Source of the DNA: Candidatus Heimdallarchaeum aukensis
GTDB taxonomy: Archaea > Asgardarchaeota > Heimdallarchaeia > Heimdallarchaeales > Heimdallarchaeaceae
Assembly (NCBI GenBank): GCA_021513695.1
Contig: CP084166.1
Location: 2,912,001 to 2,976,000, forward strand
DNA length: 64,000 nucleotides
Reading direction: 5' to 3'
How positions within the stretch are numbered: the stretch's first letter is position 1; every line of letters begins with the position of its first letter. Below, in pieces: positions 11,163 to 52,352 of this stretch. The notes beneath the pieces are model-generated. The model searched no databases, had not been told where the DNA came from, and saw only the letters and a program-made list of their open reading frames with translations. A program made the position numbers and the translations under genes.

Positions 11163-11494
11163 CCCAAAATAAATTTTCTCAGAAATATTATATAAAAATT
11201 ATTTAATATGCAATCGAGTAGAATGCTTGTCTTTATTATCTTCTATAACTTCTTAACTTTGTTTTTTTCTATATTTTTGAAAATTGCTAAAATTGATCAA
11301 TGCGTATTAATTTTAAATTGAATATTGAATAAGTTAAGAATCGAACTTAATATTATCTTTAAACTAACTTAATTTTAATTAATAGAGTTTTTTCAATCTT
11401 ATAATGCCAAACTAAAAAATAGAAGAAATGAATTCTGTTTTAGTTATAGATTCAAAATTAATTCTCGATAAAAAAGAAGAAAAAGTAAGTAAAT

Positions 11495-14338: not shown

Positions 14339-14746
14339 CTTAACACCCCAAAATAAAGTTTCTCAGAAATAATATTTAAAAATTACTAATTAAGTAATCG
14401 AGCTGAAATTTTTTTCTATTCTCTTTTTAGAACTTACTAATGATTCTTTTTTCCTTTTTCAGAAAAATTGTTATAATTGGCTGATGATTATAAATCTTAA
14501 AATCGAATATAGATACATTCAGAACTAAAGTTGTAATTATCTTTTAATTGATTTTATTTCATCTCATTCCACTTCATTTAATTTCATTTAATTTCAGTCT
14601 CAATGTTAAGCTAAAAAAGAGAGAATAGGATTCAATTAAAACAATTTTTCTTTCTTTTTTTAAAGCAGAATTTCTTCATTTTCTTATTAGTTTTAAAAAG
14701 TCTAAGATTCAATATTAGTTCTTTTCACTTTTGTTGAAAGTAAGTG

Positions 14747-15712: not shown

Positions 15713-15730
15713 GTTTCATCACTTTAGATT

Positions 15731-19362: not shown

Positions 19363-19519
19363 TGTTTTCTATTCTACCAAACATATCATAGCTCAAAGTT
19401 TACCTTTTAATGAGCTATAATATACTCTATTTATTACAAAGTTTCTAATTTTACGATATAAGTCTTATTAATCAAACAATTTATTTTCTTATTTTTTATG
19501 CAAGTGATTTGTTTTTCAA

Positions 19520-20758
19520 TTATTGAGTTTCGAACATCTTAACTATTTCTTCTTTTGAATATGACTTACTTGAGATAACTCCTTCTACAGCTTTAATATC
19601 TTTTAATCCATTTCCAGTTACAGCGACACAGACAGAATCTTCTTTTCTTATTTTTCCTTCTTTTATTAATTTTTTCAATCCTGCATATGGTGCTACAGCA
19701 GCTGGTTCTGCAAATAAGCCTGTTTCTTTTCCTAATTCTGAAATTGCTTCCAATATTTCTTCATCACTTACAGTCACATAGTATCCTCCACTTTCAGCGA
19801 CATATTTACAAGCTTTAATTACATCCCTTGGTGTTCCCACACTTATACTATCGGCAACTGTTGAGCCTTTAATTGGATGAGGAGTATAAGGTTCTCCTTT
19901 GTCAAAAACATGTTTAATTGCAGCTATTCCTTCTGCTTGTACTCCTATTATTTTAGGTATTGATTCTATTAATCCTATTTCCTTAAACTCTTTAAAACCC
20001 TTATACAGAGAACTTACTACTGTTCCATCTCCCACTCCTACAAGAACATAATCTGGAACTTTGAAATCATTTTGTACTGCAATCTCAAAGGCTCCCGTTT
20101 TTTTTCCCTCCAACAAATAAGGATTTATTGCTGCATGTCTGCAATACCACCCTTTCTTCAACCCAAGTTCCAAAGATAGATCATAAACTTCATCATATGT
20201 TCCTTCTACAGCGAAAACTTTTGCTCCTGATATTTCTAGTTGAGCTCTCTTTCCTCCGGGTATAGTTGAGGGGACGAAAATATAAGTTTCCATGGGCGTA
20301 TGAGCATTTAGCATAGCTAAAGAAGAGGCAGCATTACCTGTTGAAGCACAGAAAACAGTATCATTTTTTTCATCCAGAGCCATATTTATTGCTATTGAAC
20401 TTGCTCTATCTTTGTAAGAACTTGAAGGATTAGACCCATCATATTTTAACATTAAATCTTTTAAACCCAGTAAATCGAATTTATATAAGGGAGTTCCTCC
20501 TACATAGGGATCAAATTTTCCTTTTGCCTTTGTTGGTAAAAGAAAATCAAATTGATACATTGAAGCTTTTTTATAGAAATTCTTCTGAACTACGACGGGG
20601 TTCTCTTTTATCTTTTCATAGTCATAGATCACTTCAAGTGTACCCATAATTGGTCCACATTTTTCACAGAAGTATAGTCCTGGTCTAGGTTCATATTCTT
20701 TTTTGCAAGAAATGCAACGAAGGAAGTAGCTGCTCATTTGAATTCCTCTTTTTTTCAT
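19520..20758 (-). CDS. threonine-synthase-like fold-type-II PLP enzyme with an N-terminal Cys4 zinc ribbon
   Basis: N-terminal CISCKKEY...CEKCGP plus the PLP-lysine motif SNPSSSYKDRAS. The position inside the catabolic cluster suggests a non-ThrC role. Confidence 0.55.
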   Translation of the reverse strand: MKKRGIQMSSYFLRCISCKKEYEPRPGLYFCEKCGPIMGTLEVIYDYEKIKENPVVVQKNFYKKASMYQFDFLLPTKAKGKFDPYVGGTPLYKFDLLGLKDLMLKYDGSNPSSSYKDRASSIAINMALDEKNDTVFCASTGNAASSLAMLNAHTPMETYIFVPSTIPGGKRAQLEISGAKVFAVEGTYDEVYDLSLELGLKKGWYCRHAAINPYLLEGKKTGAFEIAVQNDFKVPDYVLVGVGDGTVVSSLYKGFKEFKEIGLIESIPKIIGVQAEGIAAIKHVFDKGEPYTPHPIKGSTVADSISVGTPRDVIKACKYVAESGGYYVTVSDEEILEAISELGKETGLFAEPAAVAPYAGLKKLIKEGKIRKEDSVCVAVTGNGLKDIKAVEGVISSKSYSKEEIVKMFETQ

Positions 20759-21837
20759 GTTAATACTCCACTAATTGCATCATAAGGACAACGAGATTCG
20801 CATAAACCGCACTGGATGCATTTGTTTTTGTCAACAATAATTTTTCCATCCTCTGATAATGCTCCAGCAGGACATATTTTCACGCAAAGACCACATAATG
20901 TGCACTTTTCATTAAATTCTGGAAAATTATTCTCTTTTTCTTCTTCAACTCTGAAAATAGTCTCCTTCCTTACTTTTCTTATTTCCTCAATTGATGAGAA
21001 ACCATACTTTTCCAATGCCTTAGGTAGATCTTTCACTATTTTATCGTAAAGATATCTCCCTTTAATTAAAGCGGAAGAAAGCATTTGAACCAAATCAGCT
21101 CCTGCAAAAATGAACTCTAACACATCTTCAGCTTTTGCTATTCCTCCTACTCCAATAATTGGTAAATCAGGAAAAGCTTTTCTTATATGATATACTCTAT
21201 GCAAAGCTATAGGTTTGATAGCTGGTCCACTGATCCACACTTCATCTCCAAGTAAGAGAGAACGGTTCTTTAGATCTACTGCAGTAGCTGGTCCTAAAGA
21301 GTTTATTGCTACTATTCCTGTAGCTCCAGCGTCAATTACTGTTTTTACGAAACCCAGATAGTCTGTTACATGAGGGCTGAGTTTCATAAAAATAGGTTTA
21401 TCTGTATTTTCCCTTATACTTCTCACGATTCCATCTAGATTTTCTTTGACATAATGTGTTGAAATTTCAAAGAAATCAGCAAAAGGGTCTAGCTTTGGAA
21501 TTAAATATCTAAAGTCTTCTTCTACATATCCTGCACTTATAATCAGTGGTTTATTTTTTTCCGAGTGAACTTTCGGTAGAATAGTTTCTATCCATTCATC
21601 AGAATGAAGTTCTGACCATAATTCTCTGTTATAAATTGTGTTTGATGTACCAGCTATACAAGGTTTCTTTACTACTGCTCCTTTTATTGAAATGGTTTTT
21701 GAGACCATGTAACCACAAGAATTGTTATTAAAAAACAGCATATTCTCTAATCCTTCACATAACGGTCCAGCAGCAGGACCTAAAGGGTTTGAAAATTTTT
21801 TTCCTAATAGTTCTATTGACAGATCCATTTTTTTCAC
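20755..21837 (-). CDS. dihydroorotate/dihydropyrimidine dehydrogenase (PreA/PydA)-family TIM-barrel flavoenzyme with a C-terminal 2x[4Fe-4S] ferredoxin domain
   Basis: A class-1 DHODH-like N-terminus with two CxxCxxCxxxCP motifs (CTLCGLCVKICP and CIQCGLCESRCP). Overlaps the upstream gene by 4 bp. Confidence 0.7.
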   Translation of the reverse strand: MKKMDLSIELLGKKFSNPLGPAAGPLCEGLENMLFFNNNSCGYMVSKTISIKGAVVKKPCIAGTSNTIYNRELWSELHSDEWIETILPKVHSEKNKPLIISAGYVEEDFRYLIPKLDPFADFFEISTHYVKENLDGIVRSIRENTDKPIFMKLSPHVTDYLGFVKTVIDAGATGIVAINSLGPATAVDLKNRSLLLGDEVWISGPAIKPIALHRVYHIRKAFPDLPIIGVGGIAKAEDVLEFIFAGADLVQMLSSALIKGRYLYDKIVKDLPKALEKYGFSSIEEIRKVRKETIFRVEEEKENNFPEFNEKCTLCGLCVKICPAGALSEDGKIIVDKNKCIQCGLCESRCPYDAISGVLT

Positions 21838-21844
21838 TTTCCAA

Positions 21845-23155
21845 TTAATTCATTTTTTCTATTCTTTCCCATAATTTTTTAGAAGCATCAGTTGCTTCTT
21901 TGTAAATCGTTTCTTCTTCAAAAATACTATTGTACTCTTTTATTAGAGGTTTGCCTTTTACAAATACCCAAGAAGGTTTAAGGTTATCAAATATTCCAAA
22001 GAATAAATGGCCAAAAACGTTATTCTCATTCATTGTTGTGGGTTGAATATAGTCAACTAATATAAAGTCAGCAACATAATCTTCTTTTATTTTTCCGATT
22101 TTTATATTCATCATCTTTCCAAAATATTCGTAAGAATGAACAATATGTTCTTTTATCTCATCTAAGCCTATTCCTACAGGATTTTTCATTCCTGCTTTTC
22201 CTAAGTAAAACAGGTTAGTCCATTCTTTGGCTATATTTGTACCTAGACCATCAGTTCCTATCAAAATAGGGATATTGAATTGTTTATAAAGAGAGTAGTT
22301 GAAAAATCCTACAGCGTTGTTTAGATTAGAAGTTGGATTAAGAGCTATATAGGCTCCTTTTTTACTCATTATTTCTGCTTCTTTTTCATTAATATGAACA
22401 CAATGTGCAAAAATCGAGTTTTCATTAATTAAATTGTAATCATCATATCTTTCTACCACTCTTTTACCGTATTTAGATAAAGAATCGTCTTCATCTTCTT
22501 TACTTTCTGCTACATGAACATGTATAGGATTTTTTTCGATTATTTTACTTATTTTCTCCAAAGTTTCATTCGATAAGCTCATCGAAGCATGTAAACCGAA
22601 CATACCTTTAGCATCAGAGGAGTTAAAAGCTAGTCCTGAGAGATTTTCTTCAATACACTCTTCAACATCAAACCTGTCACTTGTTTCAAAGCAAAAAATC
22701 CCTCTCATTCCTAAGGTTTCAACTATTGCTCTTTTTAATTCAGTTAAACTGCCTTTAATATCTATTCCACTTGCATGATGGTCTATAAGAGATGTAACTC
22801 CATTTTTCAGTGATTCTATTCCATAAACTAACCCACTGTAATAGATTGTTGGGTTATCTAATTGACTGTCAAACTTCCACCAAAGTTGTTCTAACAATTC
22901 TTTGAAGCTTGTAGGGTTGAAAGGTATGGAAGCTCCTCTTACTAATGTAGAATAAATATGTGTATGAAAATTGATTAAACCAGGAAGGAGAAGCTTGTTT
23001 TTACCGTCTATTACTTGATCAATCTCATCATTTTTTCTGAAATTATCCATTGAACCTACTTCAACGATTTTTTCATTGAACAAGCAATAACCATCATCAA
23101 TAAATGTATCATAGTCATAGATTTTCACGTTAACAATAGCTTTCATATACATCAC
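21845..23155 (-). CDS. SsnA/chlorohydrolase-type metal-dependent aminohydrolase
   Basis: LLPGLINFHTHIYSTLVRG and HVHVAESKED are typical of the amidohydrolase-1/SsnA/guanine-deaminase-like family. Confidence 0.7.
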   Translation of the reverse strand: MMYMKAIVNVKIYDYDTFIDDGYCLFNEKIVEVGSMDNFRKNDEIDQVIDGKNKLLLPGLINFHTHIYSTLVRGASIPFNPTSFKELLEQLWWKFDSQLDNPTIYYSGLVYGIESLKNGVTSLIDHHASGIDIKGSLTELKRAIVETLGMRGIFCFETSDRFDVEECIEENLSGLAFNSSDAKGMFGLHASMSLSNETLEKISKIIEKNPIHVHVAESKEDEDDSLSKYGKRVVERYDDYNLINENSIFAHCVHINEKEAEIMSKKGAYIALNPTSNLNNAVGFFNYSLYKQFNIPILIGTDGLGTNIAKEWTNLFYLGKAGMKNPVGIGLDEIKEHIVHSYEYFGKMMNIKIGKIKEDYVADFILVDYIQPTTMNENNVFGHLFFGIFDNLKPSWVFVKGKPLIKEYNSIFEEETIYKEATDASKKLWERIEKMN

Positions 23156-23162
23156 AATAGTC

Positions 23163-24494
23163 TTAGAAATTATAATGTTTTCTTTTCAGATAGTTTCCTT
23201 TAACATCTTTTCCTACAAATTTTCTTTCTTTAACTAAAAATTGTCCTCTTTGAATCGTACTTTCTACAATTCCTTTAACTTTTATTCCTTCATATGGACT
23301 ATAATCTGACTTAGAGTGTCCTGCATCTATAGTTAATTCTCTGTTTGGGTCAAATATAACCAAATCAGCATCAGAATCTTCTTGTACAACTCCCTTTTGA
23401 GGATAGAGACCGTGTATTTTTGCAGGATTTATAGTAAACTTATCTATAATGCTTGTACCAAAAAGGTTGTACATCAGTGAGAAGCTATATTCAATTCCTC
23501 CTATTCCTTTTGGGACTTTACTAACTTCAGAATATCTGTACTTTTCTTCCTTTGTGAAAGGGCAATGATCAGTGCCTATAGTATGTATAAGATCAATGTT
23601 TTTCCTTAATCTTCCTTGTTCTTCTTTTGAACGCAGAGGAGGAGCAAGTAAGAACAACCTCCCATCATCTCTTTTGTACACTTCTCGAGTTAACCAAAAA
23701 TACTGAGGGCAACTCTCTAAAAAGAGGTTTTTTCCTAATAAATCATTACAATCTTCTTTCATAAATTCTAAAGCTGTGCCTGTAGTTAAATGAACAATAT
23801 ATGCTCTTCCCTCTGTTTCTTTAACTATAGTTGAAAGTTTCTCAACTTCTTTTAACTCTGCTTCTACAGGCCTAGAGCTCTCATATTGACTTAATATTTC
23901 ATATTTTTTTGAATTTAAAATTATATTGTCGTTCTCTGCATGAATTAAGATTAATAAATTTTCAACCTTGGAAAGTTGTAACAATTCTTTTAGTTTTTCA
24001 TCTGAAATCTTTCTATCACTTTCAGAGTAAGTAGTAAAGAGTTTAATTGAGGGGATACCATGTTTTAGAGAAATTTTTACTAATTCATCCACTTTGTCTT
24101 TATAATTTCCTACTGTTGTATGAAAACTAAAGTCAATATGGGAAAGTTTTGACTCTTCAAGTTTTTGATCAAACTTTTCTTTAAATTCACTAACAAAACT
24201 TATTGGTTCTAAAAAGTCTATAAATGTTGTAACTCCTCCAAAAGCTGCTGCAATAGAACCACTTTCGTAATCGTCTGCAGAGATAAACTCTCCAAGATTT
24301 AAATTTAGATGTACATGAGGATCAATAAAACCTGGAAGAATTATCTTTCCTTCACAATTTATTTCTTCACTACAATCATGCTTTTCCTTGTTAGATGTAA
24401 TTTTTTTGATTTTTTCTCCATCTATGTAAATATTTTCATGAGTTAATGAACCATTTCTATAAACTAAGCCATTTATCAATCCTAAACTATACAT
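23163..24494 (-). CDS. cyclic amidohydrolase (dihydropyrimidinase/hydantoinase/allantoinase family)
   Basis: LPGFIDPHVHLNL, a candidate carbamylated Lys in SIKLFTTYS, and HAEND. Confidence 0.75.
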   Translation of the reverse strand: MYSLGLINGLVYRNGSLTHENIYIDGEKIKKITSNKEKHDCSEEINCEGKIILPGFIDPHVHLNLNLGEFISADDYESGSIAAAFGGVTTFIDFLEPISFVSEFKEKFDQKLEESKLSHIDFSFHTTVGNYKDKVDELVKISLKHGIPSIKLFTTYSESDRKISDEKLKELLQLSKVENLLILIHAENDNIILNSKKYEILSQYESSRPVEAELKEVEKLSTIVKETEGRAYIVHLTTGTALEFMKEDCNDLLGKNLFLESCPQYFWLTREVYKRDDGRLFLLAPPLRSKEEQGRLRKNIDLIHTIGTDHCPFTKEEKYRYSEVSKVPKGIGGIEYSFSLMYNLFGTSIIDKFTINPAKIHGLYPQKGVVQEDSDADLVIFDPNRELTIDAGHSKSDYSPYEGIKVKGIVESTIQRGQFLVKERKFVGKDVKGNYLKRKHYNF

Positions 24495-24588
24495 TAATTT
24501 GATTTTAAATTTTTCACAAATATAGTTTTGGTTGAGTTTCTGTTTTCAATACAAACAATTTAATATATATTTTATTTTTTACTAATTA

Positions 24589-26052
24589 ATGACATTAATT
24601 CCTTTAGATATTAACTCTGAAACCAGAAAAGAGAACATTGAAAGAATAAAAGAGAGAGATATTATTATTCCTACTTTTGCTCAAATGAGGAATCCAGAAC
24701 TTATACCTTCCTCTATTAAAGAAGAATTAAAAGAGATTGGTCTATGGGATATTCATCCACGAAATCTCTTTAGAATAACTTGGAAAAATGAACCTGTTAA
24801 ATTCGGAGGAGGTTTTGGAGAACCTAACTACATTGAGCTTCCTCCTGAATTAACTGGAGTTGAAGCTAGAATCATTGCTTTGGTTGGAAAGTATTTTCCC
24901 ACTGGTGCTCACAAAGTAGGTGCAACTTTTGGTTGTTTAGCACCGCATTTAGTTTCTGGATCTTTTGATGTTAAAAGAATGAAAGCTGTGTGGCCAAGTA
25001 CAGGAAATTACTGTAGAGGAGGAGCTTACGTAGCTTCTTTATTAGCTTGTGAATCTATAGCTATCCTTCCAGAAGAAATGTCTCAAGAAAGGTTTAACTG
25101 GCTCAAAACTGTTGCTGGAGAGATTATTGCAACTCCAGGTTCAGAAAGTAATGTTAAGGAAATTTACGACAAAGTCTGGGAATTAAGAGCAGAGAGAGAA
25201 AATATTTTTGTTTTTAACCAATTTGAAGAATTCGGAAACTCTCTATTCCACTATGATGTCACTGGAAATGCTTTCAAAGAAGTTTTAAACAAAGAACTTG
25301 GTGGAGGAAGGTATCGTGGTGTTACTTTAACAACTGGTTCAGCGGGAACAATTGCCGTTGGAGATTTCCTCAAGGAATTATATCCCTCATCAAAAATTGC
25401 TGCAGGAGAAGCTTTACAATGTCCAACAATGTTACTAAATGGCTTTGGAGCGCATACAATTGAGGGAATAGGTGATAAACACATTCCGTGGATTCATAAC
25501 GTCAAAAACACAGACATGGTTATTGCAATCGATGACAGAGATGTAATGTCAATTATGCGTCTTTTCAATGAAGAAGAAGGAAAGAAATATCTGGTTGAAC
25601 AAGGAGTTTCAGAAGAAATCGTGAATAAACTTGATTTGTTGGGTCTATCCAGTATTGCTAACATGCTTATGGCTATAAAATTCTCAAAGTATTATGAACT
25701 TACAAGAGAAGATGTTGTACTCACAGTATTCACTGATAGCATGGAACTTTACCAATCTAGGATTTTAGAAATGAGACAAAAATATGGAGATTATAATGTT
25801 AGAGATGCAATTAAAGACTTTCATCTCAGTTTACATGGTCAAAAGTTAGATAACTTACTTGAACTTACTTATCCACAAAAAAGAAGGATACACAACCTCA
25901 AATATTTCACTTGGATTGAGCAACAAGGAAGGCAGTTAGAAGAACTTAATGAACAGTGGTACAACGACTCTTACTGGAAAGAATTACGAACTTACCCTGA
26001 TAAAATTGATGAATTAATTAATCAATTCAACGAAGAAGTGGGATTAATATAA
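24589..26052 (+). CDS. fold-type-II (TrpB-like) PLP-dependent enzyme of unknown specificity
   Basis: PTGAHKVGAT resembles the S/A-F/H-K-x-x-G PLP-lysine motif of fold-type-II enzymes (for example DpaL). At 487 aa it carries a C-terminal extension. Confidence 0.4.
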   Translation: MTLIPLDINSETRKENIERIKERDIIIPTFAQMRNPELIPSSIKEELKEIGLWDIHPRNLFRITWKNEPVKFGGGFGEPNYIELPPELTGVEARIIALVGKYFPTGAHKVGATFGCLAPHLVSGSFDVKRMKAVWPSTGNYCRGGAYVASLLACESIAILPEEMSQERFNWLKTVAGEIIATPGSESNVKEIYDKVWELRAERENIFVFNQFEEFGNSLFHYDVTGNAFKEVLNKELGGGRYRGVTLTTGSAGTIAVGDFLKELYPSSKIAAGEALQCPTMLLNGFGAHTIEGIGDKHIPWIHNVKNTDMVIAIDDRDVMSIMRLFNEEEGKKYLVEQGVSEEIVNKLDLLGLSSIANMLMAIKFSKYYELTREDVVLTVFTDSMELYQSRILEMRQKYGDYNVRDAIKDFHLSLHGQKLDNLLELTYPQKRRIHNLKYFTWIEQQGRQLEELNEQWYNDSYWKELRTYPDKIDELINQFNEEVGLI

Positions 26053-26067
26053 ACAAAAAAAGAAAAA

Positions 26068-27924
26068 TTATTTTTTTCTTTTTAATTTTTTAACTCTGGC
26101 CAGTTTGCGAATAAAATAAAGAAATGTCACGAGAAAAACTATCCCAAAAGTTGGTGCATAGAAAATAAAGTCATTAGTATAAATAAAAAGATCAATGTTA
26201 TCATTAAAGCCATCAAAATCTGTATCTTTAGAAAAGGGATTTGTTCTTTTATTATATTCTTTGGCATTCGAAACCCCATCGTCATCAAAATCTTCATTCC
26301 CATCATTAACACCGTTATTATCACTGTCAATACAAGTAGGAGAAGTGTTGAGACATGAAATTTCATAACCATCAGGAAGAGAATCATTATCTGTATCCTT
26401 TTCAGCAACATTAGTTCCGTACAAATGCTCGCTATAATCAGATAAGCAATCATTATCTTGGTCTACTGCTAAAGAGCTCCCTCGTTGTAACGAATTACCT
26501 CTTGCTGTTCCCCAATAGATCCTTTTTCCTGTTAATCCTTGAGAGAAATCGTAGGCATAAATACCTAATCCTGACCAAAGAAGAATGACTTCATTTTCTC
26601 CATCATTATCTAAATCAACAATGGCGCCTGTATCTACAATATCTACAGAATCAAGTCTTTCTTCACTAGATGGATTGCTTATCTTCCATAAAGTTTCACC
26701 TGTTTTACCATTTAAAGCATAGTAAGATTCACATCCACCAATTAGCACATCAAGTCTATTATCATTATTGAGGTCGCCTATTAGAGGAGTTGAAAAAGTA
26801 ATGTAGAAGCAATCACAATCTGGAATATTAAGAGATTTTCCAAATTTAAAAGACCAAATAAGTCTTCCTTTTAAACCATCAAGCACATATAATTTTCCAT
26901 CTTCGCTTGTGAATATTATATCTAGAACGCCATCACAGTTCAAATCTCCTAAAGATGAACGACTACCTATATTACCTCCAGTCATATACTCCCAAATCTT
27001 TCTTCCTGACTCAGCATCTATAGCATAGAAGAAATCATTATTTGATCCAACAAAAATTTCTAGTTTTCCATTCTCATCTACATCTGCAATTAATGGAGTT
27101 TTGAGAGTGTTATCTTTAGAATCTTTTTTCACAAAACTATGTTCCCAAAGTAGAGTATGGGTTTTTCCATCAACCGCTAACAGACTATCTAAATAGGTTC
27201 TAACAATAATATCATCGCATCCATCATCATTCAAATCCGTAACAGCAATAGTTCCAGATATGATTCGATAATCTTCATACTTCCATAATTCTGTTCCATT
27301 TTCAGGAGAAAGGCTAACAATTCCTCCTGGGTTGATTTGTTTATCCTTTTTCGAAGAAGAATAAGAAACTAAAACCTCTTGCTTTAAGTCATTATTTGTA
27401 TCTCCAAGTAGAGCATTACCAATATTATCTCCTGGAGGACTATAAGACCATATATTTGTAGAATCTTTCTCAAAAGCATATACAGTTCCATTTAAACCCA
27501 CGCTTAAAATAATTTCAAGTTCATTGTCCTTGTCTAAATCAAAAAGGTTAGCGCCGTAACACCATACAGTGGGAAACCAACAGCTTTCACATGTAAAGTT
27601 TTTACTCCAAAAAATGGAACCATTTAATCCATTAAGAGCGAATAAACCTAGATCACTAATACCTACTAGAACATCTAAGTTGTTATCATTGTTTATATCA
27701 ACAAATGAAATATCACCATAATTAGGAGATGGATTAATTAATCTCCATAAAACCTTATAATTACTATCGTTGAAAGAGGAGCTTCTAATACCAATGTTAT
27801 GTGTATTATTTGATTTACAAAAAGGAAAATCAAGTGCAACTGTAATATTTTTAATTGAAATAAAAGATAGTAACACAAAAAGTATTGTTGTTAAAAGAAG
27901 AATTTTTCTTTTATATATCGTCAT
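26068..27924 (-). CDS. cell-surface protein with a 7-8-blade FG-GAP (integrin-alpha-like) beta-propeller, thrombospondin-type-3-like Ca-binding repeats and a C-terminal TM anchor
   Basis: A signal peptide. Repeated D-x-N/D-x-D-G-x-x-D/E motifs (DINNDNNLDVLVG, DLDKDNELEIILS, DLNDDGCDDIIV, DVDENGKLEIFVG, DLNCDGVLDIIFT, DLNNDNRLDVLIG, DLDNDGENEVILL). A C-terminal DTDNDSLPDG/DSDNNGVNDGNEDFDDDGVSN/DTDFDGFND stretch is followed by a TM helix and RKLARVKKLKRKK. Confidence 0.65.
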   Translation of the reverse strand: MTIYKRKILLLTTILFVLLSFISIKNITVALDFPFCKSNNTHNIGIRSSSFNDSNYKVLWRLINPSPNYGDISFVDINNDNNLDVLVGISDLGLFALNGLNGSIFWSKNFTCESCWFPTVWCYGANLFDLDKDNELEIILSVGLNGTVYAFEKDSTNIWSYSPPGDNIGNALLGDTNNDLKQEVLVSYSSSKKDKQINPGGIVSLSPENGTELWKYEDYRIISGTIAVTDLNDDGCDDIIVRTYLDSLLAVDGKTHTLLWEHSFVKKDSKDNTLKTPLIADVDENGKLEIFVGSNNDFFYAIDAESGRKIWEYMTGGNIGSRSSLGDLNCDGVLDIIFTSEDGKLYVLDGLKGRLIWSFKFGKSLNIPDCDCFYITFSTPLIGDLNNDNRLDVLIGGCESYYALNGKTGETLWKISNPSSEERLDSVDIVDTGAIVDLDNDGENEVILLWSGLGIYAYDFSQGLTGKRIYWGTARGNSLQRGSSLAVDQDNDCLSDYSEHLYGTNVAEKDTDNDSLPDGYEISCLNTSPTCIDSDNNGVNDGNEDFDDDGVSNAKEYNKRTNPFSKDTDFDGFNDNIDLFIYTNDFIFYAPTFGIVFLVTFLYFIRKLARVKKLKRKK

Positions 27925-28046
27925 TAATCTATTATTAAAAAAAGCGTATATTAATATTAACTATCCAAGCTTACAAATTTAAACTCTTTAAAAAATGAAA
28001 AGAGAATATAAAAAATTTTAATTTACTAGGAAGAAAATTTCTTTTT

Positions 28047-29021
28047 TTATCCCATTGTTAGCCACATAACTGCTTTTGCTGTATGTAACCTATTTTCTGC
28101 TTCATCATAGATAACAGAATTTGGTCCATCTATTACTGAATCTTCTACCTCATTTCCCCTATCAGCTGGTAGAGCGTGCATGTAGATTACATCTTTTTTG
28201 GCTAGTTTCATCATCTCTTCTGTACATTTCCAGTCTTTGAATTGAGAGATATCTACATCTCCTTTTTTACCACTCCAGCTTCCCCAGTTTTTAGGTATGA
28301 CAACGTCTGCGTCTCTATAAGCTTCTTCCATATCATGTGTTATTCTAAATGATCCTCCATTTTCTTCAGCATTCTTTCTTGCTTCTTCTATAACCCAATC
28401 TGGCATCTCAAATCCTTCAGGGTAAGCTAAAGTCACATCCATTCCATATCTTGGGAAAAGTAAACTTTGTGTAAGTGGTACTGAAATGGGTTTCTTATGT
28501 GATGTAGCATAAGCCCAGATTATTGAAACTTTGAGGTTTTTTGTTTCTTTTTTCTTTTCAATAATTGTCATAAGGTCAGCTATTCCTTGCATTGGATGAT
28601 AAAGGTCATCTTGTAGACTCATAATAGGCACTCTTGAGTGTTTAGCCATGTCGTTCAAATATTTATTTCCAATTCCCCAGAAGCAGTTTCTGCAAGCTAT
28701 TGCATGGCCATATCTTGAAAGTACTGAAGCAGTATCTTTTGCTACTTCTCCATGAGATATTTGCATTGTAGAAGTATCAAGATAATTAGCATGTCCTCCC
28801 AACTGAGCTATTCCTGCTTCCATAGAGTTTCTGGTTCTTGTAGATTGTTCAAAAAACATCAAAAAAATCGTTTTATATGGCAGATAAGGTGTAGGTTCTC
28901 CTTTCAAGAATTTCTCTTTTAACTCAAAAGACACTTCTAGTAAAGTATCTATTTCTTCTTTTGTCCAATCACGTAATGTGATGAAATCTTTTCCTCTTAA
29001 TTTAGATCTCATATTTCTCAC
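28047..29021 (-). CDS. YgeW/ornithine-carbamoyltransferase-family carbamoyltransferase
   Basis: STRTR carbamoyl-phosphate motif, HPMQ, and HALP in place of HCLP. Confidence 0.8.
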   Translation of the reverse strand: MRNMRSKLRGKDFITLRDWTKEEIDTLLEVSFELKEKFLKGEPTPYLPYKTIFLMFFEQSTRTRNSMEAGIAQLGGHANYLDTSTMQISHGEVAKDTASVLSRYGHAIACRNCFWGIGNKYLNDMAKHSRVPIMSLQDDLYHPMQGIADLMTIIEKKKETKNLKVSIIWAYATSHKKPISVPLTQSLLFPRYGMDVTLAYPEGFEMPDWVIEEARKNAEENGGSFRITHDMEEAYRDADVVIPKNWGSWSGKKGDVDISQFKDWKCTEEMMKLAKKDVIYMHALPADRGNEVEDSVIDGPNSVIYDEAENRLHTAKAVMWLTMG

Positions 29022-29042
29022 CTATTTTTTTTCTTTTTATTT

Positions 29043-30248
29043 CTATTCTTTCTTCATCATTTCAGAATATTTCATTGGAATTAATGCATAAACCGCTGTA
29101 GCAATATCTAACTCTTTCTTAAACGTTTTTTCGTTAGGTGCATGAGCTTCTTCCTCATGTCCAGGACCAAAGCCTATGCAAGGAACATTGTGCATTCCCA
29201 TAATATATACTCCATTTGTGGAGAATGTCCATTTATCTAAAAGTGGCTTCTTTCCCATTATTTCTTCTGCGGTTTCTACCATCATCCCACAAAGAGGATG
29301 ATCTTCTTCTAAAACCCAAGTGGGGAAATAGCTATCCACTAGAGTGCGATAGCCAGTGTAAGAAGGTTCATTGTATGTGTACATTTCTACTTTTGCATTG
29401 TATTTTTTCACAGAAGGAAGATTTTTGATTTCATTTAGAGCTGTTTCTTTTGTTTCTCCAAAAGTTAACCTTCTATCTACTGATATGCTACATCCATCTG
29501 CTACAGCGCATCTTGATGGTGAACTTGAAAATATTTCTGTTACAGTTAAAGAGCCTTTTCCTAGAAACTCATCATTTTTTAGATCTCCATGTAGTTTTTC
29601 CAACTCTTGAATGATTTTAGCCATTTTATAGATAGCATTTTCTCCTCTTTCTGGAGCAGAACCATGAGCACTTATTCCTGTGGTTGTTACTTTTATTTCC
29701 ATTCTCCCTCTCTGTCCTCTGTTTACTTTCAAGGATGTTGGTTCAGTTAAAACTACAAATTCAGGTTCAATAACTTTTTCAGTCAAAATATGGTGCCAAC
29801 ATAGTCCATCACAGTCTTCTTCCTGAACAGAGCCTACTATCCAAACAGTGGTGTCCCCGACTATATCTAAATCTTTGATTATTTTTCCAGCATAGACCAT
29901 ACAAGCAAAGCCACCCTCTTGATCACTTGCTCCTCTTCCATAGATTATTTCGTCGTCTTCATATCCTTCATAAGGATCGTGTGTCCAGTTTTCTCTATTT
30001 CCCACGTCTACAGTGTCGATATGTGCGTCAAAAGCTATAACATGTTTTCCGTTTCCTATCCTTCCTAGAATGTTACCCATTTTATCTATCTTTATCTCAT
30101 CATAACCTAATTTTTCCATTTCTTGCTTTATACGTTCAATTAGTTCTTTTTCTTTCCCACTTGTACTGGGAATGCGAATCATATCCCTTAGGAATTTATA
30201 CATATCTTTTTTGTATTCTTCAATTTTTTCCATTACTTTATCTTTCAT
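29043..30248 (-). CDS. M20 family metallopeptidase/deacylase (YgeY-like)
   Basis: [12 protein letters not shown] and VQEEDCDGL metal-ligand motifs, and the position next to the carbamoyltransferase. Confidence 0.8.
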
Positions 30249-30257
30249 TTTTAACCC

Positions 30258-32903
30258 TCATCTTTTTTTTCTAGCTATAGGGAGCTCTGTTCTCCACTTT
30301 CCATCATATTGATAGAACGCGCCTGTTACTGCTCCTGCAGTTGGTACTAAACCTATTTCTCCCACACCCTTTGCTCCAAAACCACCAATTTCTTCAGGTT
30401 CTTCAATTATTATTACTTCTATTTCTGGAGTATCTTTAGCCTTTAATATTTGCAGATCTCTAATTTTTAATGAAACTGGAACACTCTTTGTTGTTGGAAA
30501 GTCCTCTGATAAAGTGTGACCTAAACCCATATGTATTCCTCCTTCTATCTGACCTGCAACAGCCAAAGGATTTACTGCTCTACCCACATCGTGAGCAGCC
30601 AGTATTTTCTTCAGTTTCCCGTTTTCATCAAGAAAAGCTACTTGAACTGCATAACTGAAAGCTAAATGTGTAATTGGGTTATCTACTGGGGTACCTGGCT
30701 TAACTGTTATGTTGGTAACATACTCACCATGATACTCTTTTCCTACTAATTCCTTAGGAGAGTGGTTTTTTAGGTCTTCTGCAAGTTTTTCTGCAGCATA
30801 CTTTGCCGCCATAGTATCAAGTGCTGTTGCTCTTGAAGCAGTTGTCATTCCACACTTTGTTTTATCGTAACTTATCGATTTTACATCCATCTTTGAAGGG
30901 TGGATATTTGTTAATTCGCTAACTGCTTGCGTTAAAACAGTAAATAATCCTTGTCCCATTTCAGTAAAACCAGTCAATATTTCCAACCTTTCGTCTTCAA
31001 GAACACGGATTAATACTCTACCTGTATCTTCGAGAGCGTTACCTATTCCTGTGTTTTTGATTCCACAAGCGATACCTTTTGGTCCTTTATAATTCTTATA
31101 CTGCTCTTTAACTGCATCTAAACATTTCTGTAAACCAACAACTGTTTTTGTCATTATTTGTCCAGTAGCAAAACGTTTTCCTTCTCTCAAGATGTTTCGT
31201 TCTCTTATATCAAAATCATCTATTTCCTTTCCATCATCCCTCATCATCGCAGCAATCATGTTTAAACATGTTTCTATTGCAAAAGAGGTTTGATTTACTC
31301 CAAATCCTCTCATAGCTCCACAAGGAGGATTATTAGTGTAAACAGCTGTTGCATCTACATCTATTGCAGGCAAATAATATGGACCGCATGAGTGCCCTGC
31401 AGCACGTTCAACTACAGCTCCTCCAACAGAAGCATAAGCACCAGTATCGCCTATTATCCTTATTCTTGCTCCAGTTAGCTTACCATTTTCATCAGCTCCA
31501 ACTTCATATCGCATAATCATTGGATGGCGTTTAGGATGCATTCTCAAAGATTGCTCCCTAGTTAGAACTGTTTTCACTGGTTTCTTCAAGAGATAAGCTG
31601 CAAGAGCTGTTTGGGCTTGAACAGACAGATCTTCTTTACCTCCAAAAGCTCCCCCATTTGTTACCAGTTCAACTATTACATTCTCTTTTTCTAATCCTAG
31701 CACTTCTGCTATTTGTCTCTGATCTTCATGTACTCCTTGCCCTTGACTATAAACATGTACACCTTTGTCTGTGGGTAAAGCAAGCGAAGCTTCTACTTCT
31801 AGAAAAGCATGTTCTATTCTTTGAGTTCTAAATTCTTGTTTAACAAAATATTTTGAATTCCTAAAAGCTTCTTCCACATCTCCCCTGCTGAAAACAGTTC
31901 GGCTGAGTATATTACCGCTTTCATGTATTTTTTCAGCTGTAGTGTCCATAGCTTTTATAGGGTCATCTAAAGGTTCGAGTACCTCATATTCCACCTTAAT
32001 TTTTTCTACTGCTGCACGTGCATGAAACATACTATCTGCTACTACCATAGCTATTACATCGCCAACATAGCGAGTTGTTTCTCCTTCATCTACAAAAATT
32101 GGCCAATCAGGAATAATATGACCAATGAATCTTTTTCCAGGGACATCTTTAGCAGTAAGTATTTTGACTACACCGCAAGCTTTTTCTGCTTCTGTAAGGT
32201 CAATTTTCTTTATTACTGCTCTAGGGTGTTCACTCAATAAAAATGCTCCATGAAGCATTCCTTCTACTTTCATATCAGCAATATATGGTTTTTGACCTAG
32301 AGCCATGTCTAGACCACGATATCTTTTTGTACTATAACCTACTCCATCTTTCTTTGGTTCATATTCTCTCTTTAAACCATATTTTTCTCCAAAGAAATCT
32401 GCTCTTCGTGGAGGATCATCAACATTAACGGGAGTTTTTGTTTTCCAATGTTCCTCTGCTGTTTCTATCGCATCTATAATACGTTGATAACCTGTACATC
32501 TACATAAATTAGGACTTAATGCCCTAGCTTTCTCTTCTCTTGTAGATTTTGGATGAGTGTCAAGAAAAGACTTTATCCTTAACATAATTCCAGGTGTGCA
32601 GAAACCACATTGTATTCCTCCCTCTTTAACTAATGCGTTAGCTAATAGCAATTTTTCTTCTTTTTCAAGACCTTCTATTGTTATAATGTTTTTTCCTTCT
32701 ACACTTGATGGATCGCGATTACAAGAAGTCATAGCTTTTCCATCGATTAAAACTGTACATGCTCCGCAGTATCCTTGTCCAGAACATCCATCTTTACAAC
32801 TGGTGATATCACATTTTTCTCTTAAAACGTCTAATAAACTCATACCTTCTTCATATTCTATTGTAATTTCTTCTCCATTAAGAATAAATGTTGTTTCTTT
32901 CAT
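30258..32903 (-). CDS. XdhD-like fused 2Fe-2S + molybdopterin-binding xanthine-dehydrogenase-family oxidoreductase
   Basis: An N-terminal CKDGCSGQGYCGACTV / QCGFCTPGIM / NLCRCTGY domain is followed by the Mo domain with GGAFGGKED (881 aa). Confidence 0.85.
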   Translation of the reverse strand: MKETTFILNGEEITIEYEEGMSLLDVLREKCDITSCKDGCSGQGYCGACTVLIDGKAMTSCNRDPSSVEGKNIITIEGLEKEEKLLLANALVKEGGIQCGFCTPGIMLRIKSFLDTHPKSTREEKARALSPNLCRCTGYQRIIDAIETAEEHWKTKTPVNVDDPPRRADFFGEKYGLKREYEPKKDGVGYSTKRYRGLDMALGQKPYIADMKVEGMLHGAFLLSEHPRAVIKKIDLTEAEKACGVVKILTAKDVPGKRFIGHIIPDWPIFVDEGETTRYVGDVIAMVVADSMFHARAAVEKIKVEYEVLEPLDDPIKAMDTTAEKIHESGNILSRTVFSRGDVEEAFRNSKYFVKQEFRTQRIEHAFLEVEASLALPTDKGVHVYSQGQGVHEDQRQIAEVLGLEKENVIVELVTNGGAFGGKEDLSVQAQTALAAYLLKKPVKTVLTREQSLRMHPKRHPMIMRYEVGADENGKLTGARIRIIGDTGAYASVGGAVVERAAGHSCGPYYLPAIDVDATAVYTNNPPCGAMRGFGVNQTSFAIETCLNMIAAMMRDDGKEIDDFDIRERNILREGKRFATGQIMTKTVVGLQKCLDAVKEQYKNYKGPKGIACGIKNTGIGNALEDTGRVLIRVLEDERLEILTGFTEMGQGLFTVLTQAVSELTNIHPSKMDVKSISYDKTKCGMTTASRATALDTMAAKYAAEKLAEDLKNHSPKELVGKEYHGEYVTNITVKPGTPVDNPITHLAFSYAVQVAFLDENGKLKKILAAHDVGRAVNPLAVAGQIEGGIHMGLGHTLSEDFPTTKSVPVSLKIRDLQILKAKDTPEIEVIIIEEPEEIGGFGAKGVGEIGLVPTAGAVTGAFYQYDGKWRTELPIARKKR

Positions 32904-33514
32904 TGTTCATTCACATACTTTTTCCATTCTTCTAAAGTGTTTAGATTAAGTGTAACTTTTCTATCATTAACATTAATAATACGCACTTCATCATTTTTTT
33001 CTATTTTCTTTAATTCATAATCTAACCTATGATCGCTAGAACAAGACAATATATGATCAATAAACTTAGGAGATAGAAAGACAGGATGACCTTTTTTTCC
33101 TTTAAAACTAGGGATTACTGCAGAAACACCTTCAACCGCTTCAAGTATCTTGAACCAAGTCTCCTTATCTGGGCAAGATACATCAATTGGTAAAACAAAG
33201 GCTCCTTCATCACTAAACTCTCTCACTTTTTTTAATCCACATTGAATAGAAAAAAACTGACCTTTTTCTGTTTGTAAATTTCTAACGAGTATTTCTTTTC
33301 TTAATTTTGGAACTAGATCAACATAAAGATCATAATCTTTTCCAAGAACAATAACTATCTTTTCAAAACCAATCTCTTTTAGCTTTTCTATTTGGTTTTG
33401 TATAAAAAAAGTTCCTTTATAATCTAACAATCCTTTAGGTTTTCCCATTCTCCTTGAATCCCCTGCAGCAAGAATAATAACAGGAGGAAAAAAAAGATCT
33501 CTTTTCACATTCAA
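32900..33514 (-). CDS. mocA: MobA-like NTP transferase, molybdenum cofactor cytidylyltransferase (MocA/YgfJ-like)
   Basis: VIILAAGDSRRMGKPKGLL signature. Overlaps the XdhD-like gene by 4 bp. Confidence 0.75.
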   Translation of the reverse strand: MNVKRDLFFPPVIILAAGDSRRMGKPKGLLDYKGTFFIQNQIEKLKEIGFEKIVIVLGKDYDLYVDLVPKLRKEILVRNLQTEKGQFFSIQCGLKKVREFSDEGAFVLPIDVSCPDKETWFKILEAVEGVSAVIPSFKGKKGHPVFLSPKFIDHILSCSSDHRLDYELKKIEKNDEVRIINVNDRKVTLNLNTLEEWKKYVNEQ

Positions 33515-33767: not shown

Positions 33768-36626
33768 TTGAGGTCATTCGTGTTGAAGAAGAAAAAAAGT
33801 TTAATTATAGCTTTAATTTTGGTTGCAACATTCACCTCTTTTGTAAACTTTCAAACAGCAGTTGTGAATGCAGAGAATTATCAGTTAAATAATGGAGATA
33901 CATTCGTCTATGATCATATATACAATTATGAAACTAATACAAGGGAAATATTCTTTCCTGATGAAAATAGAAATGATTATGCATATGAATCTATCTATAT
34001 TAATCAAGAAGAACATAAATACCTTAGAGGTTTTAATGTTACAAATACAGATTTAAGTTCAGATTACATCGAAGTTTTTGAAGTTAAAACAGGTGCCACT
34101 ATTTACTCTTATTATCAAAATAACACGTATTATAGATGGGGAGCAGATGGTTGGTATAAAGACTACTCAAATGAATACAACGATATCACATATTATTCTT
34201 GGGATTCAGGAAATGCTAATTATAGGAATTTAAATAATTATTCCAATCTAGTTTTTGATCCAACTGGTTATTTTGGAATATCAACATTTATCTCACAAGA
34301 AACTAGAGCATATAATGTTAATGGTGAAGTATTTACTTTACAAATAGATGTTTACTATTGTAAAACGAATGAGTGGGAAGATACATGGAATTCGACATGG
34401 TATGGTGTTGAGACTCCAACGCACAGTTTTAATTACGATGAATATTATTACTATGTTGACAACAACACTGGAATCTTGCTAGAATATAAGAAAATTCATC
34501 ACTATGATGTTACTTACAAATTTTATGAATACTTAGCTGATTATAATACTTATGTTAATTTCACACGTGTAAGAAATAAAAAGACTACAGATACATACAC
34601 ACTAATTAAATCTAGTAACTTCTATTCTACTGTTGATAATTCCTTTGTCCCATATTTTATTTTTAAGGACAATAGCTGGACACAACCTATAACAAACAGT
34701 ACAACAGGAATAACTTTTCCATTCCTATTTTCTAAAGACGTCGCGAAACTAGAATTTTATGTGTATAACTACCTATATGGATGTTGGAGATGGGATTTAG
34801 TAAATAGCCAAACAATTACTAGCACAGAGTTGAATTATACTGTCCCAATAGACTACTTTGGATATATACCTAATAATGTAAATAAAAATTTCAGAATTAT
34901 AGTTTATGATACAAAAGGCAACTTATTTATACAGTACCAATCTATTGAGGATGATAGGTACCCTATTCCCGATTGGCAGAGTCAAATAGAAACAAATAAA
35001 GAATATAAAGGAGTAGAAGACAAGGAACTGATCTTAAAATGTCTTTATATTTATTCTGACACTACTTGGAAAGTAGAAACAAGATTCTATTATAATCAGT
35101 CAGATTTAACACAATTTTGGTCAAACTATTATGAGGGTTATGGAAACAGGACATTAAATATTTGGATTAGCGGTATATGGGCTGTTGGAGACTATACAGT
35201 TAACATAACGTTTACTGACGCGGTCAATACTACTTATTCTACTATTGTTCCTGTAACTATCTATCCCAGTGGAACGGATGTAGACCCTCCAGATTTAAAT
35301 GTGCCTTGGTATGAAGAAAAAAATTTTGGAGAACCACATAAATGGGCTATCGGAGATTATGAAGAATTCTGGTTCAATACTTGGGATGATAACCCAAATT
35401 ACTATGAATTTTATGTTGATGGAGTTCTATATGATACAGGAAATTACTCTGAACAAATTAACTATTACTACAACTTTAATGATCTTATTAATGAAGTTGG
35501 ATTGCACAACCTTACTGTTATAACCTATGATCAATTTGGAAATTATAGGAAAGAATCAGTATGGGTAAAAGCTTATCCTGAAGGAACAGATTTAAAAAGA
35601 CCAGATTTATGGTGGAATGTTAACTCTTACTATGAATTAGGAAGCGCAGAACGATATAGTTTTTGGTTTAATGAGAAAAACCCTGATTATTACGAAATTA
35701 GACTAAACGATGAAATTATTTCATCAGGCAGCTATGATCAGAACTACTTTGAGATATACTTTACTGGTAAAGAATTATTTAGTGAAACAGGCGGACATAT
35801 TTTATCCCTCTTTGCTAATGATACCTCAGGAAATGAAATGTATTATGAAAAGGAAATTAATGTCGTTCCTAGTCAACCGGAGACTGATCCTCCCACATTC
35901 GAGAATATATATGATGTTGACTATTACAGAATTGGGGATTATTACGACATTTCCTTCTACATTAACGATAAATATCCTGATACTTACAATCTTTATATTA
36001 ATGGAAATCTAACGCTTTCCAATGTACCTTATGAAGGTTATGGATGGTATCCAGAGAATGAGCAACATTTGCAATTGCGAGATTATATCTTTGAAGAAGG
36101 AACCAATGAAATCTACATAGAAGCCTTCGATCAATGGGGAAACAATAATAATATTACAATTTACGTTAATGCCTATACTGAAGCCTATCAAGATGATTAT
36201 GATGCACCCCAGATAGATACTAACATGGACTATTGGCATGCAATTGAATACGTAATAGGTACTAGTAAAACAGTGAAATTTACATTATATGATGCAAATC
36301 CTGATTATTATGAACTCTACATTGACGACGAATTGATTAAAACCGATAGTTACACTGATGGGACTACTATCTCATTTAACCTTAATACCTACATTACAGA
36401 AGAAGGAATACATACAATAAAAATGGTTGCTTATGATGTTTTTGGAAATAGCAATGAATTAAAATTATCAATAAAAGCAATTTATGAATCAAGTTCTGAT
36501 GATACTAATGAAACTACTACACAAGATAAACAAACAATAGATTTACCATTTAGTGTATGGAGTATTTTTATCGCTTTACCTGTAATAACTATTATAGCTA
36601 AAAAGTTCAAAAAGTATAAAACATAA
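33768..36626 (+). CDS. giant secreted surface glycoprotein, paralog C (952 aa)
   Basis: Same architecture as paralogs A and B. TTG/GTG start after GAGGT. Its 3' ~1.65 kb is the inverted copy of the 3' part of paralog B. Confidence 0.7.
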   Translation: MRSFVLKKKKSLIIALILVATFTSFVNFQTAVVNAENYQLNNGDTFVYDHIYNYETNTREIFFPDENRNDYAYESIYINQEEHKYLRGFNVTNTDLSSDYIEVFEVKTGATIYSYYQNNTYYRWGADGWYKDYSNEYNDITYYSWDSGNANYRNLNNYSNLVFDPTGYFGISTFISQETRAYNVNGEVFTLQIDVYYCKTNEWEDTWNSTWYGVETPTHSFNYDEYYYYVDNNTGILLEYKKIHHYDVTYKFYEYLADYNTYVNFTRVRNKKTTDTYTLIKSSNFYSTVDNSFVPYFIFKDNSWTQPITNSTTGITFPFLFSKDVAKLEFYVYNYLYGCWRWDLVNSQTITSTELNYTVPIDYFGYIPNNVNKNFRIIVYDTKGNLFIQYQSIEDDRYPIPDWQSQIETNKEYKGVEDKELILKCLYIYSDTTWKVETRFYYNQSDLTQFWSNYYEGYGNRTLNIWISGIWAVGDYTVNITFTDAVNTTYSTIVPVTIYPSGTDVDPPDLNVPWYEEKNFGEPHKWAIGDYEEFWFNTWDDNPNYYEFYVDGVLYDTGNYSEQINYYYNFNDLINEVGLHNLTVITYDQFGNYRKESVWVKAYPEGTDLKRPDLWWNVNSYYELGSAERYSFWFNEKNPDYYEIRLNDEIISSGSYDQNYFEIYFTGKELFSETGGHILSLFANDTSGNEMYYEKEINVVPSQPETDPPTFENIYDVDYYRIGDYYDISFYINDKYPDTYNLYINGNLTLSNVPYEGYGWYPENEQHLQLRDYIFEEGTNEIYIEAFDQWGNNNNITIYVNAYTEAYQDDYDAPQIDTNMDYWHAIEYVIGTSKTVKFTLYDANPDYYELYIDDELIKTDSYTDGTTISFNLNTYITEEGIHTIKMVAYDVFGNSNELKLSIKAIYESSSDDTNETTTQDKQTIDLPFSVWSIFIALPVITIIAKKFKKYKT
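34980..36626. repeat. right arm of the inverted repeat (3' part of paralog C)
   Basis: See the left-arm entry. Identity decays about 16 nt past the stop codons. Confidence 0.85.
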
Positions 36627-37034
36627 ATTTACTTACTTTCTTATTTTTTTATTAATGACTAATTTTAGAATAACAACAAAAAATAAGATGGATAGATTCA
36701 AAAATTAATATAAAATGTGAATGGAGATATTCTTGTACATCAGGTAAGCATTTCTAAATGTTTCGTGCATTTAGATATTCTAAAAAGGAGAAAATAAAAG
36801 CGCTGAAACAGGAGAAAAAGTGAGTAAAAAGTATAGATCTCGCAAAAATCATTTCATTCTAGTGAAAATTGAAATTTAGCAAAAGAAGAAAATTTGTTAG
36901 TAATCTTATAGGAAAGATATAAAAGCATCTCAGTTTAGTTGGAATTAAGATTCCATATGTCATTAGTGATTTTTCTATACTTTTTTAAACAGTTTAATTT
37001 TCATTGATTTAAAAAAGTAAAACTTGTGATTTAA

Positions 37035-42839: not shown

Positions 42840-42868
42840 ATTTCAATTCCACTATGTCTGATTCTAAC
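42840..42868 (-). repeat. solitary degenerate CRISPR repeat (one substitution and a 1-nt deletion versus the consensus), same orientation as the array
   Basis: ATTTCAATTCCACTATGTCTGATTCTAAC versus the consensus ATTTCAATCCCACTATGGTCTGATTCTAAC. It lies 504 bp beyond the last canonical repeat. Confidence 0.6.
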
Positions 42869-42877
42869 GTAATTATC

Positions 42878-43192: not shown

Positions 43193-43372
43193 ATAAAGGT
43201 TGTTTTTAGTAGTGTTAAAAATGCATTTAGGTGGTTTTTCAGCTCGTCCCTTTACTTTTTACGATGTTTCTAAACTTTTTAAATCTTCAGAAACGGAAAA
43301 AATTGTTAGAAAAAACGTTTCTTACATAATAAAGAAAGAATTTGAATATGTTATTACTAAACAGCTTAATAT

Positions 43373-51319: not shown

Positions 51320-51327
51320 ATCCTCAC

Positions 51328-52350: not shown

Positions 52351-52352
52351 TT

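Follow-up and report, generated by a model that had tools for sequence, protein, structure and literature searches.

Among β-propellers, those of the VCBS type carry the DxDxDG motif, include the alpha-integrins and lectins and typically recognise carbohydrates, and as a hub they are linked to the WD40 propellers via the PQQ-type propellers (PMC9218822). The propeller of Bap1/RbmC from Vibrio cholerae has eight blades and a "velcro" closure, and binds Vibrio polysaccharide (VPS) directly (PMC10102183). Here we describe a gene at positions 26,068–27,924 of a 64,000-nucleotide stretch of Candidatus Heimdallarchaeum aukensis DNA (contig CP084166.1, positions 2,912,001–2,976,000; hereafter the window), the product of which is probably a stand-alone, Sec-exported, type I membrane-anchored surface protein of the Heimdallarchaeaceae with a non-catalytic role in Ca2+-dependent binding or adhesion, outside the purine pathway among whose genes it is located. 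The protein sits at the bridge between the VCBS and WD40 propellers already placed in the literature (PMC9218822), and it is correctly annotated as an eight-bladed, calcium-loop propeller at the cell surface, within the VCBS/PQQ-like supercluster, not an integrin, BamB or a purine pathway component. Its parts are as follows.

26068..27924, minus strand: complete gene for a type I membrane surface protein of 618 residues, from the open reading frame list and the orthologs; stop codon at 26068-26070
27832..27924, minus strand: signal peptide or N-terminal hydrophobic segment, residues 1-31 (MTIYKRK-ILLLTTILFVLLSFISI-KNITVA), with Kyte-Doolittle maxima at residues 5-33 and a putative cleavage site
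26509..27762, minus strand: eight-bladed β-propeller, residues ~55-472
27673-27699, 27514-27540, 27376-27402, 27211-27237, 27058-27084, 26920-26946, 26749-26775 and 26590-26616, minus strand: eight calcium-loop motifs
26179..26508, minus strand: conserved junction (RIYWGTARGNSLQRG) and acidic TSP3-like stalk with five DxDxD(G) motifs, residues 473-582
26110..26169, minus strand: single C-terminal transmembrane helix, residues 586-605, from hydropathy; model helix at 583-617
26071..26109, minus strand: short cytoplasmic Lys/Arg tail, IRKLARVKKLKRKK, as seen in the translation
27925..28046, minus strand: AT-rich spacer of 123 bp from the stop of the ygeW-like gene to the ATG of the propeller gene, containing TATA-like stretches and runs of T

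The 618-residue protein contains 13 matches to the pattern D-x-[DN]-x-[DN]-x-x-x-[DE], whereas 20,000 shuffled versions of its sequence gave 0.37 ± 0.62 matches and at most 5. An initial annotation, made from the letters of the DNA, had counted seven to eight calcium-loop repeats at a spacing of about 60 residues; the loops are regular as it described, but there are eight, starting at residues 76, 129, 175, 230, 281, 327, 384 and 437, and they lie 46–57 residues apart (mean ~52). The full 1-3-5-9 ligand pattern (DxNxDGxxD/E) is present in 8/8 blade loops, each of which has a hydrophobic strand on its N-terminal side and a "...YA(L/I)(D/N)xxxGxxxW" element on its C-terminal side. The membrane anchor proposed in the same annotation is borne out by the transmembrane segment at residues 586–605 and the Lys/Arg tail behind it. 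The Logan assembly for run SRR15988958 includes an identical copy of the protein.

An AlphaFold2 model built with a 75-sequence alignment (mean predicted local distance difference test score, pLDDT, 87.5; predicted template modelling score, pTM, 0.84) has eight four-stranded blades, each with a Ca-type loop between its strands 1 and 2. Judged by the strand order, blade 8 appears to be closed, velcro-fashion, by the N-terminal strand (residues 56–63), which is preceded in the model by a helix (residues 2–20) and a disordered linker (residues 25–53, pLDDT <50), and the stalk is modelled at pLDDT 90–97 over residues 480–570. Domain searches agree with this fold. Pfam PQQ_2 (PF13360) scores 66 bits against a cut-off of 27.6 and FG-GAP_3/VCBS (PF13517) 52.5 bits against 26.9, over six stretches; with the DxDxDG motif, the latter match places the protein in the VCBS/FG-GAP_3 supercluster, and with the eight-bladed model, the former places it among the PQQ_2/BamB-like eight-bladed propellers. 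The extracellular β-propeller with FG-GAP-type calcium loops that had been read from the sequence is thus upheld, with a blade count of eight.

The top structural matches of the model are BamB and YxaL. A family profile finds the archaeal PQQ-like protein 3hxj (E = 1e-54), Bap1 (4e-34), YxaL (5e-33), BamB (1e-19), CRTAC1 (2e-18) and blades 4–7 of integrin alphaV (2e-15), and its matches include designed proteins derived from the blades of an archaeal "cell surface protein". YxaL (Bacillus), BamB and 3hxj are non-enzymatic and, like the window protein, PQQ-like and eight-bladed. Neither BamB nor YxaL is known to have a calcium loop in every blade, and a BAM machine or outer membrane is not to be expected in an archaeon. 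Since the BamB equivalog models TIGR03300 (33 versus 285.2 bits) and NF008351 (30.7 versus 423 bits) are in addition far below their cut-offs, the name "BamB family" given by PGAP to orthologs describes the fold and not the function. The relationship to Bap1/RbmC (PDB 6mlt) is strong in fold and profile, at 18% identity; the Vibrio proteins are secreted, carry β-prism lectin inserts and have no TSP3-like stalk, whereas the window protein is membrane-anchored and stalked and has no β-prism.

The same searches bear on whether the protein could be an extracellular enzyme on a propeller platform, such as a PQQ- or metal-dependent dehydrogenase, a PL11-type lyase or a carrageenase-like hydrolase. 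The family profile matches the PL11 lyases YesX (7.5e-20) and YesW (1.3e-16) and tetrathionate hydrolase (7e-18), the Pfam lambda-carrageenase propeller is found above its cut-off (3e-10), and there are partial matches to PQQ dehydrogenases. The last are single blades below the curated cut-offs: PF01011 reaches 25.1 bits against 26.7 over ~70 residues, and NCBIfam TIGR03075 32.7 bits against 480. Across the 75 homologs, the nearly invariant columns are confined to the structural loop Asp and to blade Gly/Trp residues, which argues against a shared catalytic site, and the best structural neighbours are non-enzymatic binders; an enzymatic function is therefore unlikely. The initial annotation had set its proposal against a generic PQQ/WD40 enzyme. 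The fold is indeed of the generic PQQ-like/VCBS eight-blade type, but dehydrogenase signatures are lacking.

Integrin alpha shares with the window protein the DxDxDGxxD calcium hairpins between blade strands 1 and 2, type I topology and a short basic tail. A genuine archaeal integrin-alpha homolog, i.e. a eukaryote-type adhesion receptor related to integrin alpha, DEX1, FAM234 and ITFG and specifically shared between Asgard archaea and eukaryotes, would fit a Heimdallarchaeaceae host and the same order of signal peptide, calcium-loop propeller, stalk, transmembrane helix and short tail. It would fit, too, the profile match to integrin alphaV, the Pfam FAM234A/B propeller match (1e-9, above its cut-off), the matches to plant DEX1 and an oyster protein, and the listing of integrin-repeat proteins among the Asgard eukaryotic signature proteins, according to a passage of PMC9258230 that cites it. 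The integrin-type FG-GAP model PF01839 reaches 17 bits, below its cut-off of 22.1. The FG-GAP propeller of integrin alpha has seven blades, whereas the model here has eight four-stranded blades and the sequence eight loop motifs; the DxDxDGxxD-type motif, a feature of the C-terminal blades in integrin alpha, occurs at the motif level in all eight. No thigh, calf-1 or calf-2 leg domain was detected at E<=1 in a Pfam scan of the protein, in which the post-propeller region consists, in the model, of ~110 residues of acidic repeats with short helices, and the membrane-proximal GFFKR motif is absent from the tail. The relationship to integrin blades is genuine, if remote, and we regard a true integrin-alpha homolog as highly improbable.

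The distribution of the family is also broad. The best matches are Heimdallarchaeaceae orthologs, while no tRNA or Rfam element of the window is informative about the host. Promethearchaeota, Woesearchaeota and many bacterial proteins come next; those of Planctomycetota and cyanobacteria score 104–107 bits, compared with 54 bits for the oyster protein and 49 bits for DEX1, the eukaryotic matches appearing only at E = 1e-9 to 1e-7. An exhaustive search returned 26,636 cluster representatives at E<=1e-3, 7,311 at E<=1e-10 and 590 at E<=1e-30. With 7,311 representatives at E<=1e-10 and prokaryotic matches outscoring eukaryotic ones, the suggestion that these are eukaryote-type modules uncommon in prokaryotes is not supported. 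A narrower idea, of an Asgard-wide family of Ca2+-dependent type I receptors for cell-cell or cell-matrix contact, possibly related by specific descent to the FG-GAP membrane proteins of eukaryotes (integrin alpha, DEX1, FAM234, ITFG1/2), is in our view quite improbable; if true, it would show from the prokaryotic side how integrin-type adhesion arose. Literature searches on Asgard FG-GAP proteins found no report, and the Heimdallarchaeum genome paper makes no mention of integrin, propeller, purine or xanthine.

The C-terminal acidic repeats are the second module of the protein. The stalk motifs lie at residues 488, 510, 533, 541/545 and 567, with a period of 22–23 residues, and the run fits the bacterial TSP3 consensus DxDxDGxxDxxE...GT(N/D)P...D, with about three full and two short repeats in which Ser, Cys or Asn takes the place of Gly at several positions. 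Scanned alone, the stalk matches Pfam TSP3_bac (PF18884) at E 0.26 (11.6 bits, for a gathering score of 25 bits) and TSP_3 (PF02412) at E 2.1; in the orthologs TSP3_bac is likewise subthreshold (E 0.002–0.07, 13.5–18 bits). The sole NCBIfam match on the C-terminal repeats aligns residues 504–579 with the repeat region of Myxococcus CglD (E 3e-6). As in bacterial TSP3 (PF18884) and CglD, the repeats are acidic and about 23 residues long, but those of the window protein stay under the Pfam threshold. The TSP3-like run described in the initial annotation thus holds at the level of an acidic DxDxD motif series, with Pfam scores below the threshold.

The junction and stalk are also conserved in P0225, P0160, P0163, P0218 and P0179. 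At least 20 of the top 150 representatives align in one stretch from propeller through stalk, and the eight of these that were inspected all have the full architecture: propeller, junction G-x-R-I-Y-W...GGN..R, acidic repeats, a "DPFPxFPDGWFYW" motif, a transmembrane helix and a basic tail. The named members with this architecture are from Heimdallarchaeota or Promethearchaeota, those from Heimdallarchaeota being titled "VCBS repeat-containing" or "BamB family"; the family members found have no more than generic fold-based annotation. MBY9002016.1 (Heimdallarchaeota), for example, is collinear with the window protein over its full length. Such Asgard proteins share 35–38% identity with it, and some differ in having extra transmembrane segments, zinc-ribbon tails or cytoplasmic extensions. 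Pfam TSP3 models lie beside the propeller in 7/120 word-indexed matches, and PF18884 is next to a homologous propeller in P0006, P0007, P0008 and P0027. Because the full architecture recurs and formal TSP3 models accompany some of the propellers, the combination of propeller and stalk is common in Asgard archaea, not unusual. This apparently conserved cassette of propeller, TSP3-like stalk and transmembrane helix provides reasonable candidates for the surface contacts of syntrophic archaea. Separately, metagenomic contigs encode giant proteins of 5,000–6,500 residues (P0121–P0127, P0170, P0177, P0197) that are huge arrays of the TSP3-like stalk repeat, with up to 43 stretches matching residues ~485–580 of the stalk at 39–44% identity.

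Calcium in the propeller loops rigidifies the ring in integrin alpha and other VCBS propellers. The ectodomain is an eight-bladed VCBS/FG-GAP-PQQ-like propeller with a DxNxDGxxD/E loop between the inner two strands of each blade. In the mechanism that we propose, up to eight Ca2+ ions could be held on one face, because each blade carries a complete loop, and would rigidify that face. The opposite face, with its longer inter-blade loops, may form the binding surface, and inter-blade loops are invariant among four orthologs (e.g. W116-G124 and F359-D371). The acidic stalk of ~100 residues, with about five further putative calcium sites, would space the propeller from the membrane, to which a single transmembrane helix with a positive-inside tail is predicted to anchor it. 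The protein would then bind, in a Ca2+-dependent manner, an extracellular polymer or a partner surface (glycan or exopolysaccharide, or protein). By analogy with the binding of biofilm polysaccharide by the Bap1/RbmC propeller, binding of a polymer or partner surface is the most likely function; protein binding as in YxaL and BamB and glycan binding as in Bap1/RbmC appear equally possible.

Several points weigh against this assignment. The closest solved structures, YxaL and BamB, make protein-protein contacts and do not bind glycans; the supercluster relatives include enzymes (YesW/YesX, tetrathionate hydrolase and the PQQ dehydrogenases), so that catalysis is possible; and "TSP3-like" is a motif-level label, the scores of the stalk with TSP3_bac and TSP_3 being below the Pfam thresholds. 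The gene also lies on the same strand as ygeW, and read-through co-transcription from it is possible.

The C terminus of the protein raises the question of whether the gene is complete in an evolutionary sense. The Heimdallarchaeaceae orthologs P0002 (76% identity, 932 residues), P0003 (60%, 617 residues) and P0004 (51%, 920 residues, from Ca. Heimdallarchaeum aukensis) include two long forms, P0002 and P0004, that extend ~300 residues past the transmembrane helix, a stretch in which two additional hydrophobic segments lie; P0003, like the window protein, ends after the first transmembrane helix. The window protein could accordingly be read as a truncated, relocated copy of a longer receptor with three transmembrane segments, maybe without signalling and maybe a decaying or decoy paralog, both long forms having in addition a peptidase C14 neighbour. 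No remnant of the long-form extension was found in the window. Against truncation, the reading frame is unbroken and the ectodomain strongly conserved, many of its positions being invariant in four orthologs. Other proteins of the wider family also commonly end in this short way (P0003, P0163, P0218, P0225), for which reason the short form is taken as a normal architecture and truncation as unlikely. The long-form orthologs (920–932 residues, with a ~130-residue C-terminal domain) are divergently adjacent to caspase-like peptidase C14 genes in two genomes (L001 252-1316 and 5303-6361; L002 6990-8012), and in P0009 a C14 domain is fused to the propeller; a functional pairing of propeller and C14 peptidase is possible. 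Beside the P0002 ortholog lies an intein-interrupted RtcB gene (L002 11469-14444).

The format of signal peptide, C-terminal transmembrane helix and basic tail recurs in at least four other surface proteins of the window, with comparable basic anchors such as ...AKKFKKYKT and ...SRKLKKRH. One of these surface proteins, at 60902-61984 on the plus strand, is a NosD-like β-helix protein of 360 residues with an N-terminal signal and the same anchoring style (C-terminal transmembrane helix and basic tail, RSRKLKKRH); a NosD/β-helix protein with TSP3_bac repeats also occurs near the ortholog P0003 (locus L003). A sortase- or archaeosortase-type sorting signal was considered and rejected in favour of a plain transmembrane anchor, because the lone srtB_target match (E 0.42) is meaningless and the same transmembrane segment is internal in the long orthologs.

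The propeller gene lies between a ygeW-like and a hyuA-like gene, on the ygeW strand, within a cluster of 19.4 kb. Its neighbours encode ygeY (632 bits, cut-off 321), a ygeW-like carbamoyltransferase, ssnA-like, dihydropyrimidinase-like and preA-like proteins, two pyridoxal phosphate (PLP) enzymes, xdhA/B/C and a second molybdenum hydroxylase, and "purine catabolism" was a fair label for this cluster of ygeY/ygeW/ssnA/hydantoinase/xdhABC type. Position and strand are what would speak for the propeller as a functional part of purine or N-heterocycle catabolism, e.g. as a substrate-capturing or co-regulated surface receptor. Conservation of context speaks against it. With the ygeW-like protein as query, 80 loci were retrieved from other genomes, two Heimdall metagenome-assembled genomes (MAGs) included, and 0/80 have a propeller homolog (E<1e-20) within ±10 kb of ygeW; conversely, all 7/7 other family members examined are in unrelated contexts, P0002 and P0004 adjoining a peptidase C14 gene, P0003 lying among unrelated genes and four further members each having different, unrelated neighbours.

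Comparison of gene orders locates the difference. In Acidaminobacter (L045), ygeY-ygeW-hyuA-ssnA-preA-PLP are contiguous, and relative to this order the window has a two-gene interruption consisting of the propeller gene and an inverted PLP gene, the stop codons of the two convergent genes being 15 bp apart. At the same ygeW/hyuA junction, the Heimdall MAG L006 has a flavin reductase gene, a serine-resolvase/TnpB-like pair and a restriction-modification methylase gene, i.e. a mobile element and a restriction-modification gene; the junction after ygeW is an insertion hot spot. Upstream of the propeller gene, the AT-rich spacer with T-runs has the look of a probable promoter of its own together with an upstream terminator, and the gene is presumably transcribed independently at a variable junction between transcription units. 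The statement that it is embedded in the operon is therefore not supported, the gene lying at an apparent transcription-unit junction behind the 123-bp spacer in a position that is not conserved. That it has no obvious functional link to the purine genes was well judged, nothing having been found that links it to the flanking genes. We consider membership of the catabolic pathway extremely unlikely. The propeller gene would instead occupy a variable junction of a bacterial-type ygeW/ygeY/xdh cluster as a surface protein outside the purine pathway; its family is large, prokaryotic and already known, and the gene appears to be in the purine cluster by accident.

In L006, the junction region (11028-17490) comprises, besides the flavin reductase gene, a MerR/serine-resolvase gene with a 652-residue Cas12f/TnpB-like protein, arranged as in IS607-type elements, together with a type II/IIG-like N6 methylase, and a duplicated C-terminal fragment of xanthine dehydrogenase lies at 8370-8771. 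The ygeW-like carbamoyltransferase is 72–78% identical to homologs from Bacillota, Atribacterota, Synergistota and Mycoplasmatota (loci L008-L085). Because of this identity and of the gene order shared with Acidaminobacter L045, the purine-type cluster (window 14747-33514) looks bacterial in origin, and it possibly entered the Heimdallarchaeia by horizontal transfer.

The 19.4-kb cluster, propeller gene included, is bracketed by a 2,890-nucleotide inverted repeat (window 11450-14339 and 33782-36671, 91% identical), which points to a segment capable of inversion or to an island with duplicated genes at its borders. A bacterial-looking purine cluster between the arms of a 2.9-kb inverted repeat may hold more evolutionary interest than the propeller gene itself. 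Each arm of the repeat encodes a surface protein of ~950 residues, and the window has three such paralogs (8271-11162, minus strand; 11495-14338, minus strand; 33768-36626, plus strand) with near-identical signal peptides and C-terminal anchors (...DLPFSVWSIFIALPVITIIAKKFKKYKT). No Pfam match was found in the two that were scanned, and the three paralogs look like an uncharacterised, lineage-specific family of surface proteins. Elsewhere, window positions 42850-45870 and 46232-55141 hold a minus-strand type I CRISPR-Cas locus and an adjoining long array with a period of 66–67 nucleotides; the genes are cas6, a large unassigned subunit, cas7, an unassigned open reading frame of 264 residues, cas3, cas4 and cas1, and the array contains an internal duplication of 300 nucleotides at 99% identity (43641-43940 and 44571-44870).

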